Assembly (NCBI GenBank): GCA_001917135.1
Contig: MNTT01000014.1
Location: forward strand, 73,620-137,619
Direction of reading: 5' to 3'
From: Acetobacter sp. 46_36
GTDB taxonomy: Bacteria > Pseudomonadota > Alphaproteobacteria > RF32 > CAG-239
Length of the DNA stretch: 64,000 nucleotides
Shown here: positions 49,342-52,377 of the stretch, in pieces
How the letters are laid out: each line of letters opens with the position of its first letter
Position numbering within the stretch: position 1 is the stretch's first letter
Made by a program: the position numbers and the translations under genes
The notes under the pieces: generated by a model
The model's database searches: none
What the model was told of the DNA's origin: nothing
Seen by the model: only the letters and a program-made list of their open reading frames with translations

Positions 49342-52300
49342 TTATTGTTTGTTATTATCAGGCTTATCTTCTTCGCCGTCGTCTTCAACATATTCCCATT
49401 CCCAGTCTTCATCTTCTCCGGCTGGAATTTCGTTGCCGTTCTCGTCAACATACTCCCACTCCCAGTCCTCGCCGTCTTCGGCTGTTTCCTGAGCGGTATC
49501 TGCAACCGTACCTGAAGCGGCCGCGTCCAAAACATTGCTTGGTGACTTGGAAACAGCAACAGAAGAAATCTGTTGAGACTGTACATAGTCGCTGCCATCA
49601 GAAAAATGTGCTGAAGCTTTGCTGTAATCGTCCGAGTCAGACATAACTTGCTTATCGTTAACAAGCGTATCGCTGTCTTTTCCGACATTCTCGTCATCAC
49701 TGTATTCGTCTAAAGCGATGGGTTCGTTCAACGAAGAAATATCAACGCTGTCAGCCGTTAAAGCCGCCCGGATTTTATCCAGCTCAGCGCTGTATCGGCT
49801 GGGACGTTCCTGTTGGGAAGCCGCCGTGCCTGTATCATCTGCCGCATCATCGCTTGTTGTTTCGTTTTGCGGCAGGATACCTTGCGACTCAAAGTCTGTA
49901 TGTTGGGGATGAGATGATACAGCGTCTTGATTTAACAGCATATCCGCAGATGTGCTATCCGATGCAAGAAGTGAATCCAAATCTTCCGTTTCATTTGTTG
50001 GTGTTAAGATTTCTTGCCGTGTATCGAACGCCGAAATGCCATCGCTCGCAGGCAAAGGAGCTGCTGTAATACTTTCTGTATCAGCATTTTCTTTGGAAAA
50101 TGATTGGAGTGTATCTTCGCCTGTATTCTCTTCATTGGTATTTTTTTGTGAAAGTGAATGGAAGACGTCTTCATCAAAGTTGCTACTGCCGGCATTTTCT
50201 TCTTGAGCCTGTTGTTTTGCCAGACTTTGCGACATAAACTGGCTGAGAGCGTCAATTCCTTCTGCTGAAGAAATATTTTCCGGTAAAGTAAAGTCCAAAT
50301 CGTCAGACGGTATTTCAGGAACATCTGCCGTTTGTCTGGACGATACGGCAGCTTCATTTCTTTGCCCGTCGTGTTCATCTTCTGTCAGGGAAAAATCTTT
50401 TTCTGGGAGAGAAAAATTCAGGTCGTCGGAAAAAGATGTTTCATTTGTGTTGGCAGGCTCTTTATTGCTTATGTCTGCAAAACCGGCAGAAAAATCTTCG
50501 GTTGCGGAAAAATCCTGTTCCGGAATGCCGTCAGGCAGGGCGAAATCCAAATCGTCGCCGTTTAAGTCATCAATACTTGCAATGCGTTCTTTAGAATTAT
50601 CGTTATTTTGGTTGCGAGGACTGTTGCCTTCTTCGTTGGAATTCACTCTCGCCGGAGATTTTGCGGCATTTTGCTGTGAACCATTGGGCAGAACAAAGTC
50701 TAAATCATCTGAACCGAAAGAAACAGAATGATTTAATATCGGGTCATCAATACTGTCATTTGTAATATTGTTGCTTGTGTGGGTGGAATATCCGCCGACA
50801 GTATTGGTTTCATCATATAAGTTATCCAGCGAATTTAACCTTGCGGTCAAATCATCTTTTTCAGTCTCCGGCTGTTCAGTGAAAATATTTTCCTCCAGCG
50901 GGGGAACGTCTAAACGAATATGGTCAAAGTTGTCATCATATTTATATGCAGTGTTGCGGATTGTTCCACCAAAAGCCTGAGGAATTCTCTGATTATCAGT
51001 CCGGTTCTCCGCGTGTTTGGGCGCCGCCGATGCTTTATCCGAAATTATCGCGGCCGGCTGTTGTGCAGCCTGAGAAATCTGTGGAGAAGATGGTTGCTGT
51101 GGGCTGCTGTTAATAGCATCAGTTTGATTCTCTCTGTTCTTCTTCTTTTTTCTTCTTTTCTTTTTATGTTCCTCCCCAAAAGTACGCTCTTCTCCAAATG
51201 AGTGCTCCTCGCCAAAGGTACGCTCACTGCTCAGGATGGGGGCATCTCCCAAATTCGTAACCGGTTCAAAATGCAGGGGCGTGTCATCATCGCTACGGGC
51301 ATGCATACCGGCGGGTATATCCGTTGTCGCAATTCTCTTTTCATCTTCGCTGAGAGGCTTTATCGCCGAACTTTTTATGTTTGGAGTATCTGCCTCTGCC
51401 GTATTTTCTTTCTTATAAACCGGCGGAATATTTTGCTGAAAATTACTGCCGTTTGGTGCTTTCTCCATATCGGCAGGAAAAGGCTGCGCAACCGTTTCTA
51501 TAACAACCTTTCTGTCGTTGACTGTCTGCGCATATTCTTTAAACATATCCTGCATTTGTTGCAAAGACAAAGAAATTTCGTCTTTTATTTCATTCCGAAA
51601 AGATTGCAGCCTGTTTTCAACATTCAGATAATCTGAAATTTCTGTATTTTTCTTGTTGTTTGCGGTATAAAGTCCCTCCAACAGTTTTGTAATTGAGGCT
51701 TGAGAAGCTATTATCCGGCTGTTCAAATCGGCAACATCGTTATCATCTCTGGTTCGGGAGGATAAAATCCCTTCTAAAATACGTGAAATTGAAACCTGCG
51801 AAGCAATAACGGAGTCTGTTATGCTGCGCGTTTCTTTTAATACATCAAGCAATGAAGCCCGTGATGTGCGAATTTCATCGGCGATAACGTCAAAAGCGTT
51901 GCCGAAATCAGCTGTAACGGTCGTATTTCCTCCTGGCTGAAGTGAGGAAGATGAAGTGGCCGGAAGCTGCTTAAAGGCGTTTGCCAAAGACTGAGCCAGC
52001 GTTTCGGCAAAAGAGGGGTCCAGGGTAATGCTGCCCCCGGCCATTTGAACAACCCCGCCCGTTGCGACAGGTGTCGGCGTATCCGTTTTTCCGGCGCCTT
52101 CGTCAAAATCTTCTCTGTTAGCTTTGACAAAAGCGATTCCCCTTTCGGTCTTGACTTTCTCTATATGCTCGACCAGCAAGCGCCCGCCCGGCATCCGCTT
52201 GAAAAAGTCCGTAATGTTTTGCGGCAGGGACAGCAATTCTTCATCAAATTCGTCACGCTTTGCCTTGTTGAAAATATGAACCTGCCTGAAAATATTCAAA

Positions 52301-52377
52301 TAGCGTTGTGCCACCAGAATCGGGGCTTCTTCCCCGCTGTTGTCACTGCCGAATTCTGCGTCATTTAAATTTTCCAC
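49342..52377 (-). CDS. 1011-aa hyper-acidic repeat protein with no TM or signal peptide. N-terminal about 330-aa domain has duplicated IASQxSIxxxLEG heptad-like segments. RTFGEEH x3 is followed by a KKKRRKKKKNR patch. Four DDLDF(T/A/V)LP(E/D/N) repeats. C-terminal DWEWEYV x2.
   Basis: Repeats read directly from the translation; D/E/S/N-rich low-complexity composition. Confidence 0.6.
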   Translation of the reverse strand: MENLNDAEFGSDNSGEEAPILVAQRYLNIFRQVHIFNKAKRDEFDEELLSLPQNITDFFKRMPGGRLLVEHIEKVKTERGIAFVKANREDFDEGAGKTDTPTPVATGGVVQMAGGSITLDPSFAETLAQSLANAFKQLPATSSSSLQPGGNTTVTADFGNAFDVIADEIRTSRASLLDVLKETRSITDSVIASQVSISRILEGILSSRTRDDNDVADLNSRIIASQASITKLLEGLYTANNKKNTEISDYLNVENRLQSFRNEIKDEISLSLQQMQDMFKEYAQTVNDRKVVIETVAQPFPADMEKAPNGSNFQQNIPPVYKKENTAEADTPNIKSSAIKPLSEDEKRIATTDIPAGMHARSDDDTPLHFEPVTNLGDAPILSSERTFGEEHSFGEERTFGEEHKKKRRKKKKNRENQTDAINSSPQQPSSPQISQAAQQPAAIISDKASAAPKHAENRTDNQRIPQAFGGTIRNTAYKYDDNFDHIRLDVPPLEENIFTEQPETEKDDLTARLNSLDNLYDETNTVGGYSTHTSNNITNDSIDDPILNHSVSFGSDDLDFVLPNGSQQNAAKSPARVNSNEEGNSPRNQNNDNSKERIASIDDLNGDDLDFALPDGIPEQDFSATEDFSAGFADISNKEPANTNETSFSDDLNFSLPEKDFSLTEDEHDGQRNEAAVSSRQTADVPEIPSDDLDFTLPENISSAEGIDALSQFMSQSLAKQQAQEENAGSSNFDEDVFHSLSQKNTNEENTGEDTLQSFSKENADTESITAAPLPASDGISAFDTRQEILTPTNETEDLDSLLASDSTSADMLLNQDAVSSHPQHTDFESQGILPQNETTSDDAADDTGTAASQQERPSRYSAELDKIRAALTADSVDISSLNEPIALDEYSDDENVGKDSDTLVNDKQVMSDSDDYSKASAHFSDGSDYVQSQQISSVAVSKSPSNVLDAAASGTVADTAQETAEDGEDWEWEYVDENGNEIPAGEDEDWEWEYVEDDGEEDKPDNNKQ

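Follow-up and report, generated by a model that had tools for sequence, protein, structure and literature searches.

Organization of the ACID locus

We analyzed a 64,000-nucleotide stretch of DNA, hereafter the window, from Acetobacter sp. 46_36 (contig MNTT01000014.1, positions 73,620 to 137,619 of the forward strand), focusing on a gene for a hyper-acidic protein, here termed ACID. The gene lies second in a row of five genes on the same strand, which occupy positions 46521-53431 in the order XRE-type helix-turn-helix (HTH) regulator, ACID, acidic protein p165, lipoprotein LIPO, and bitopic inner-membrane protein BITOP. The unit consists of the following elements (aa, amino acids; ORF, open reading frame; TM, transmembrane):

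52442..53431, minus strand: XRE-type regulator, first gene of the putative operon, with two HTH_3 domains (Pfam, 1.4e-25) and a conserved C-terminal domain of ~125 aa
49342..52377, minus strand: ACID, hyper-acidic protein of 1011 aa with a GTG start (ORF call)
48790..49287, minus strand: p165, acidic cytoplasmic protein of 165 aa that always adjoins ACID
47511..48797, minus strand: LIPO, lipoprotein of ~428 aa, predicted divergent PilN/BfpB-type secretin with an N0 domain and a shortened secretin domain
46521..47498, minus strand: BITOP, bitopic inner-membrane protein with one TM segment
46436..46458, no strand assigned: bidirectional terminator-like hairpin that closes the unit, with no other inside it

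The spacing between neighboring genes of the unit is at most 64 bp and at its tightest an overlap of 8 nt, and a promoter-like site is located upstream of the regulator gene; the five genes form a putative operon. Synteny was assessed by tblastn across 91 loci (numbered with the prefix L), with the gene order scored wherever the flank was available, and the order HTH-ACID-p165-LIPO-BITOP was unchanged in every one of these cases. In selected genome pairs between genera, the regulator, p165, and LIPO were 85-90% identical and the N-terminal region of ACID 70-80% identical, compared to 58-63% for NagZ and 60-70% for the SPOR protein from the adjacent region 44183-46211. The module is therefore more conserved than the neighboring housekeeping genes, which change between clades while the five-gene unit stays constant. 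Literature searches on the ACID motif, on RF32 combined with type IV secretion systems (T4SS), and on gut Alphaproteobacteria combined with VirB6 returned nothing relevant, and neither the five-gene secretin module nor its coupling in this clade to VirB6-like or pilin genes appears to have been described.

Composition and predicted structure of ACID

The original prediction of a real, strongly acidic 1011-aa protein that has neither a TM segment nor a signal peptide was borne out. As computed from the sequence, ACID contains 198 D+E versus 84 K+R residues, has an isoelectric point (pI) of 4.23, and is rich in S, D, E, A, and N. Its intrinsically disordered region (IDR, aa 301-1011) carries a net charge per residue of -0.14. 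No TM-like window was detected (the maximum Kyte-Doolittle 19-residue mean is 1.01), and hydropathy revealed no hydrophobic, signal-peptide-like stretch at the N-terminus, no dedicated signal-peptide predictor having been used. The GTG start is supported by the N-terminal sequence MENLND, which is invariant in the orthologs. Within the species, the common allele encodes 975 aa and lacks aa 727-762, and a rare allele has one DDLDF copy fewer, so that the number of repeats does vary among strains.

An AlphaFold2 (AF2) model of ACID built on 42 homologs showed a helical N-terminal third followed by mostly disordered sequence, with 699 of the 1011 residues (~70%) at a predicted local distance difference test score (pLDDT) below 50. 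Small ordered islands appeared beyond the helical region at aa 472-482, 706-727, and 861-884. The helical part comprises two segments:

aa 1-95 (52093..52377), minus strand: N-terminal helical domain that defines the family, with helices at aa 17-35, 38-49, 53-61, and 65-78 (AF2)
aa 121-288 (51514..52017), minus strand: helix 121-136 and long, coiled-coil-like helices 158-208, 214-251, and 253-288

The first of these segments shows 85-91% column conservation in the close clade, and the N-domain is still ~40% identical in the most distant members. The long helices contain the duplicated IASQxSIxxLLEG segments at aa 191 and 223 that had been noticed at the outset as part of an N-terminal domain of about 330 aa; the duplication is present, whereas the structured conserved part ends near aa 290. 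ACID had no match in Pfam, NCBIfam, or PHROG, and its N-domain matched neither a PDB sequence nor a known fold, the phmmer and profile searches giving only noise (MlaD, E 0.23). A KfrA- or phasin-like N-domain was dropped for want of a match, as was an ArdA- or Ocr-like DNA mimic for either ACID or p165, neither of which matched such a family.

Conserved motifs in the disordered region

Beyond the helical third, the following repeats and conserved islands were mapped:

aa 385-415 (51133..51225), minus strand: three tandem (R/H)(T/S)FGEE units followed by the poly-K/R patch KKKRRKKKKNR
aa 471-495 (50893..50967), minus strand: conserved island GxIRNxxYKxxDxFxxxxLDxPPL (conservation profile), a small beta element with pLDDT ~69
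aa 556-700 (50278..50712), minus strand: four (S/G)DDL(D/N)FxLP motifs in acidic disordered sequence
aa 860-898 (49684..49800), minus strand: family-wide island SRYSAELDKIRxALTxDxxDISSLxxPIxLDxYxDDENV, an amphipathic helix plus peptide
aa 969-999 (49381..49473), minus strand: two (E)DWEWEYV(D/E) units, the WEYVDENGN hairpin repeats that define the family

Most of the repeats in the original prediction were recovered. The four DDLDFxLP motifs start at aa 557, 608, 651, and 692 (spacings of 51, 43, and 41 aa), with D or N as the fourth residue; the KKKRRKKKKNR patch starts at aa 405, and the two DWEWEYV motifs at aa 971 and 991. The reported triple RTFGEEH is indeed a tandem of three, but only two copies are exact (aa 386 and 398), with SFGEER in between, and the repeated unit has six residues. 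In 2000 composition-preserving shuffles of ACID, a 5-mer occurred at least three times in 3 shuffles and a 7-mer at least twice in 5, so that the repeats exceed chance. The motif copies use differing synonymous codons, which indicates conservation of the peptide rather than recent DNA duplication, and the mixed AAA, AAG, and AGA codons of the poly-K patch rule out a slippery homopolymer. The motifs also reappear in orthologs despite diverged surrounding sequence. We conclude that they are non-random and under purifying selection.

The motifs differ in their phylogenetic depth. Among the complete orthologs, DDLDFxLP is present in 1-4 copies and is confined to the close clade, and the FGEE tandem is limited to the closest lineage. 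A K/R run of 6-12 residues is found in most orthologs with an N-domain identity of at least ~46%, mainly the nearer half of the family, and is missing in most deeper clades. In contrast, the island at aa 860-898 has 67-83% column conservation, with a helix at aa 861-874 of pLDDT ~80, and is retained in distant members as YDxALxxIKxAL..VSLD..P(I/V)SL. The terminal (E/D)WEYVDENGNP(L/I) units, each of ~20 aa, occur in 1-7 tandem copies in most complete orthologs, where the array usually stops 6-23 residues before the C-terminus.

The patch and the DDLDFxLP motifs bear on a reading of ACID as a general organizer of the cell pole or division, or as a polyanionic condensate scaffold, that is merely co-located with the secretin gene; in a variant, the poly-K patch would make ACID a nucleic-acid factor of a machine for DNA uptake or transfer. 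An acidic IDR joined to an oligomerizing coiled coil resembles the PopZ- and PodJ-like condensate formers, DDLDFxLP is presumably similar to docking tails of the acidic-hydrophobic type, for example the C-terminal peptide of FtsZ and the tip of SSB, and genes for SPOR, NagZ, CtpA, and XerD-like proteins are found near the module. However, it is these flanking housekeeping genes that differ between clades and not the five-gene unit, the poly-K patch is missing in many members, and no nucleic-acid-binding domain was detected in ACID by Pfam and NCBIfam scans. We consider this reading, in either variant, improbable.

The terminal repeat is specific to ACID. Across the window and the 91 loci, the WEYVDENGN pattern had 171 matches, all of them inside the ACID gene region, so that WEYVDE as a tag common to several proteins was ruled out. 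When searched as a 6x array, the repeat matched only positions 3-13 of the 27 positions of the WW_1 model, 5-18 of 63 in MucBP, and 4-15 of 48 in SSSPR-51, in each case the first beta-hairpin; no full-length domain of these three types was matched by the array, and the C-terminus of ACID from the window had no match to them. Nothing on the WEYVDENGN motif was found in the searchable literature.

The same motifs had been the basis of the first option of the original prediction, in which ACID is a secreted effector whose DLDF and W-acidic peptides bind eukaryotic clathrin adaptors and whose K/R patch acts as a nuclear localization signal (NLS). In a fuller form of this reading, ACID would be a T4SS-translocated effector or a secretin-exported substrate, p165 its dedicated acidic chaperone, the tail motifs would bind proteins of the target cell, and the poly-K patch would serve as an NLS or bind membranes or nucleic acids. 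The long IDR, its short conserved motifs, and an invariant motif ~10-20 residues from the C-terminus agree with this reading, since many T4SS signals lie near the C-terminus, and so does the small acidic gene p165 that is always present next to ACID. Scanning with adaptor-motif patterns modeled on ELM gave zero matches in ACID for the clathrin box, AP-2 alpha/beta ear, GAE, and KLC W-acidic patterns and for NPF, and each of these patterns was rare in the family (1-8 of 83 sequences); the only pattern that fitted was the generic NLS pattern K[KR].[KR], via the poly-K patch. The resemblance to degenerate W-acidic peptides was not upheld either, since the motif shared throughout the family, WEYVDENGN, is an invariant hairpin of 10 residues. 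This hairpin is the same in members from the human gut, mouse, ruminants, and bioreactors, which suggests that its partner is encoded by the bacteria themselves. Also at odds with an effector, the poly-K and DDLDFxLP elements are missing from much of the family.

Distribution and conservation of the ACID family

A word-indexed search retrieved 188 close homologs of ACID, an exhaustive phmmer search with the N-terminal 300 aa gave 334 clusters at 50% identity, and in a scan that took one genome for each GTDB species, at least 223 species had a relative. Among the matches listed, all 80 of the 80 ACID loci derive from uncultured metagenome-assembled genomes (MAGs), mostly of Alphaproteobacteria from the gut or rumen. 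The window shares 98% identity with 'uncultured Rickettsiales bacterium UMGS1453'. Several contigs with the alphaproteobacterial module (L064, L067, L068, L069, and L055) are labeled Bacteroidaceae, Lachnospiraceae, or [Ruminococcus] gnavus, which probably reflects mis-binning of MAGs. Relatives of ACID were absent from the viral contigs scanned, and a prophage origin was rejected on this ground; a tblastn search of plasmids with the N-domain gave no match. No member of the family has a functional name.

Conservation along ACID is uneven. It is high at aa 1-95 and 157-260, in the poly-K patch, at aa 471-495, in the DDLDFxLP motifs, at aa 860-898, and in the terminal WEWEYVDENGN, and the remaining sequence varies with hardly any constraint, segments being gained or lost. 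The complete orthologs from the loci examined and individual distant members share the N-domain, the YxxALxxI(K/R)xAL...SLD..P(I/V)SL island, and an acidic linker (pI 4.05-5.0), with the terminal WEYVDENGN units as a further trait of most complete orthologs; the smallest member, of 368 aa, is little more than these universal elements. The family itself is undescribed, and so are its N-domain and the WEYVDENGN repeats. It offers a clean natural case of bacterial short linear motifs held by selection within fast-evolving disorder.

Other proteins of the module

LIPO carries a lipobox, MNKFSFFKFKKGYFLLLSLLAVIS, followed by an invariant cysteine. A start that gives a 413-aa protein, the length of the gene called in L002 and also of the closest database homolog, cuts the signal peptide short; an ATG at 48797 or 48800 restores MNKFSFFKFKKGYFLLLSLLAVISC with the lipobox, which makes the gene overlap the stop codon of p165 by 8 nt. 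In a tblastn search of plasmids, LIPO matched a 'pilus (IV) biogenesis' protein (E 1e-4) located in a type IVb pilus (T4bP) cluster with secretin, ATPase, and platform genes on the Methylibium plasmid RPME01. This protein carries the Pfam Secretin domain (2e-13), and its hhalign comparison with LIPO extended from end to end over 324 columns (probability 89.8%, E 1.8e-6). The predicted fold of LIPO matches secretin N0 domains, including that of BfpB, and its C-terminal half is beta-rich in the AF2 model, at low confidence. LIPO, p165, and BITOP had no match in Pfam, NCBIfam, or PHROG, PF00263 not being matched directly by LIPO, and phmmer and profile searches of all three against PDB sequences gave only noise. 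Judged by these comparisons, LIPO is probably a divergent T4bP secretin of the PilN/BfpB type.

BITOP consists of an N-terminal basic motif, a variable disordered linker, the TM segment, and a near-invariant periplasmic domain of ~95 aa with two cysteines. The invariant basic motif KxRKIKR (aa 40-46), near the cytoplasmic N-terminus, is a candidate docking site for acidic partners. No relatives of p165 or BITOP were detectable outside the clade: p165 had no family or PDB match and its profile search stayed inside the clade without retrieving any named protein, and hhalign found no similarity of either protein to the genes flanking the secretin gene in the RPME01 T4bP cluster.

The regulator gene was always directly upstream of ACID, on the same strand, wherever the flank was available. 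A 276-aa chimera, in which the ACID N-domain (aa 1 to ~150) is fused in frame to the C-terminal domain of the regulator, was found in six species, where it sits between the genes for the regulator and full-length ACID (L049:9035-9865; also L045, L064, L066, L067, and L068). This natural fusion marks the N-domain as an autonomous module that is linked to the regulator. These facts also speak for a mainly regulatory ACID, whose N-domain would bind or replace part of the co-transcribed XRE repressor and, through partner switching, link transcription to how far the envelope machine has been assembled, analogous to the logic of ExsA/ExsD or FlgM. However, the fusion is only a hint and leaves ~700 residues of IDR with conserved motifs unexplained; moreover, the C-terminal domain of the regulator gave only noise against PDB sequences, so that no fold was identified for it, and the regulator has no known DNA targets. 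A mainly regulatory ACID is thus rather unlikely, although a partner-switching role is compatible with, or may coexist as a sub-function of, a hub role.

Genomic setting: T4SS, pilin, and housekeeping genes

The window holds dnaA-dnaN-recF (8275-12219), yidC, mfd, recG, and other housekeeping genes, as well as the bacterial small signal recognition particle (SRP) RNA (35986-36080, 63.5 bits), from which we conclude that it represents the core chromosome near the replication origin rather than an island; the genome is ~1.85 Mb. Beyond window position 64000, in L004 (3753-9556) and L005, lies a stretch of ~5.8 kb nearly without called protein genes, upstream of genes for 144-aa and 279-aa proteins, which may be an rRNA operon. 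Two sets of T4SS genes were recognized in the window:

15..3103, plus strand: VirB10/TrbI and VirB11 (Pfam TrbI 9.2e-30, Bflower_2 1.5e-17, T2SSE 5e-27)
53733..62639, minus strand: TrbL/VirB6-like array directly upstream of the module, with proteins of 1030, 351, 435, 466, and 508 aa and a small 179/239-aa ORF

VirB10/TrbI has an N-terminal beta-flower domain (Bflower_2). The VirB6-like proteins were assigned from weak Pfam TrbL matches (E from 1.1e-5 to 1.8, with only E 0.95 and 1.8 for the proteins of 351 aa and 435 aa) together with paralogy and synteny. The 1030-aa protein has a weak Bflower_2 match at its C-terminus. VirB6-like arrays are also present at L009:5306-8674 and L010:1763-8843, and large paralogs in other clades carry Peptidase_M23 or Hydrolase_2 (cell-wall hydrolase) domains. 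VirB10/VirB11 and the VirB6-like array are parts of a scattered, Rickettsiales-style T4SS. In L083 and L085, VirB11 and VirB10 flank the module itself.

Genes for PilS/Bundlin type IVb pilins flank the module in ~12 loci, among them L011 (4940-5407 and 15625-16470), L086 (five genes), L009, L046, L055, L058, L062, L064, L069, and L072. In the two deep-branching members L011 and L086, pilin genes are present but the module has no VirB6-like array next to it; in the 64-kb window itself, we found no pilin gene. Secretin, pilin, and a VirB-like system make up the gene set of known competence machines, and by this analogy ACID could belong to a machine for DNA uptake or transfer, as in the nucleic-acid variant considered above.

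Of the effector option in the original prediction, the presence of a T4SS (VirB10/VirB11 and the VirB6-like array) stood, whereas its adaptor-motif argument did not. The effector reading keeps some weight, given the adjoining T4SS genes and the C-terminal position of the invariant motif. However, no VirD4 gene follows VirB11 in the window, where the next genes are those for a GTPase and YidC on the other strand, and none adjoins VirB11 in L083 or L085; the deep-branching members have retained the module although no VirB6-like array lies beside it, and no known T4SS signal domain was detected in ACID by Pfam and NCBIfam scans. Effectors are typically accessory, patchy, and fast-evolving, whereas ACID is fixed in synteny wherever the flanks are available, no listed member of the clade lacks it, and the conservation of its module exceeds that of NagZ and the SPOR protein. 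Taken together, an effector or exported substrate is an unlikely explanation of ACID.

Proposed function of ACID

The explanation we favor, with a confidence somewhat short of even, is that ACID is a cytoplasmic, largely disordered, multivalent hub or tether of a five-gene secretin envelope module, which in its logic would be a soluble counterpart of the FimV/HubP/PodJ-type organizers of pilus or secretin machines without being homologous to them. Several lines of evidence support it. ACID lacks a TM segment and a hydrophobic N-terminus, and its helical head and coiled coil are followed by ~700 polyanionic disordered residues with selected peptide islands; it occurs in an invariant order with the putative secretin gene, beside VirB6-like or type IVb pilin genes; the module is better conserved than the housekeeping genes nearby; and the fusion of its N-domain to the regulator ties it to components of its own module. 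Since ACID is always encoded in one operon with a probable pilus-type secretin, a scaffold inside an envelope machine is a more likely role for it than that of an effector aimed at a host. The second option of the original prediction, an acidic polar scaffold of the FimV/HubP/PopZ type, is accordingly better supported than the first: an acidic scaffold linked to a secretin-like gene (LIPO, in fixed synteny) was supported, whereas homology to FimV, HubP, or PopZ was not, their domains being absent.

As a hub, ACID would oligomerize through the N-domain and the coiled coil and dock at the cytoplasmic face of the machine, with p165, the basic KxRKIKR tail of BITOP, and the C-terminal domain of the regulator as candidate docking partners. 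GspC and PilP bind secretin N0 domains, and by analogy the periplasmic domain of BITOP would reach the N0 ring of the LIPO secretin. The long acidic linker would act as an entropic tether. The SRYSAELDKIR island and the WEYVDENGN hairpins throughout the family, and in this clade also the poly-K patch and DDLDFxLP, would capture client proteins or the anionic membrane.

Several points weigh against the hub. Each binding step proposed for ACID is an inference, and family, PDB, and fold searches found no homology of ACID to any known hub. The AF2 models have low to moderate confidence (pLDDT 44.5 and 52.7), and within 10 kb of the module there was no gene for a pilus ATPase, a platform protein, or a prepilin peptidase. 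The motif-bearing C-terminus together with p165 could equally be read as a secretion substrate with its chaperone.

In a wider sense, it is conceivable, and we propose only tentatively, that the five genes constitute an undescribed secretin-based envelope machine, with a minimal PilN-like secretin, fixed in an entire order-level clade of abundant, uncultured gut Alphaproteobacteria and functionally coupled to a scattered Rickettsiales-like T4SS or to type IVb pilins, with ACID as a new type of soluble disordered hub and WEYVDENGN and SRYSAELDKIR as new docking motifs. The clade is widespread in public assemblies, and more than 4,000 blocks of the assembly index list a gene that neighbors this locus. 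The module is among its most conserved lineage-specific genes, of which the domain libraries and the literature searched give no account. If ACID is the organizing hub, its short conserved peptides are testable handles on the parts of the machine, and such handles would help decide whether the set of secretin, VirB6-like, and pilin genes serves DNA exchange, adhesion, or attack on neighbors or host cells.

Comparison with known systems

Disordered T4SS and T3SS effectors of the CagA/Tir type resemble ACID in their long IDR, repeated short linear motifs, and adjoining secretion-system genes. In contrast to them, ACID is strictly syntenic and highly conserved, its motifs are longer and invariant across hosts, and the adaptor patterns are unmatched.

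The T4bP clusters R64 pil, bfp of enteropathogenic Escherichia coli, and Vibrio cholerae tcp have the lipoprotein secretins PilN, BfpB, and TcpC. LIPO is likely a distant homolog of such a secretin, and in several lineages genes of PilS/Bundlin-type pilins stand beside the module. Unlike these clusters, the module lacks ATPase, platform, and prepilin peptidase genes within 10 kb, is a fixed chromosomal feature of the clade, and in many cases directly adjoins T4SS genes. We know of no described T4bP cluster that contains an ACID-like protein.

PopZ and PodJ are alphaproteobacterial acidic IDR scaffolds with helical or coiled-coil oligomerization modules, and in this they are similar to ACID. 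The PopZ domain comprises a short N-terminal binding helix, a PED-rich linker, and a C-terminal helical oligomerization domain in ~180 aa, and PodJ positions the Cpa pilus machinery. ACID has neither PopZ (DUF2497) nor PodJ-type domains, is five times as long as PopZ, and, unlike PodJ, has no TM or periplasmic part; its N-domain and WEYVDENGN repeats are unique to the ACID family. An identification of ACID as PopZ was ruled out by the lack of a PopZ Pfam match at E up to 0.01, the length (1011 versus ~180 aa), and the different domain order.

The membrane proteins FimV and HubP combine a LysM domain in the periplasm with a single TM segment, an acidic cytoplasmic region, and a C-terminal tetratricopeptide repeat (TPR) 'FimV domain' (PMC12918733). 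ACID has no sequence or fold similarity to them; it is devoid of LysM (Pfam and NCBIfam scans), a TM segment, and the FimV domain, and its C-terminus is disordered with WEWEYV repeats, so that a FimV/HubP homolog was ruled out. Nevertheless, ACID does possess the extensive acidic cytoplasmic region of these proteins and shares with FimV, HubP, and TspA, polar hubs of type IV pilus and flagellar systems that act as multivalent recruiters, a very acidic, largely disordered, motif-bearing cytoplasmic region and the tie to a pilus secretin (PMC12918733). The membrane and periplasmic part of such a hub would in this case be supplied by a separate protein, BITOP.

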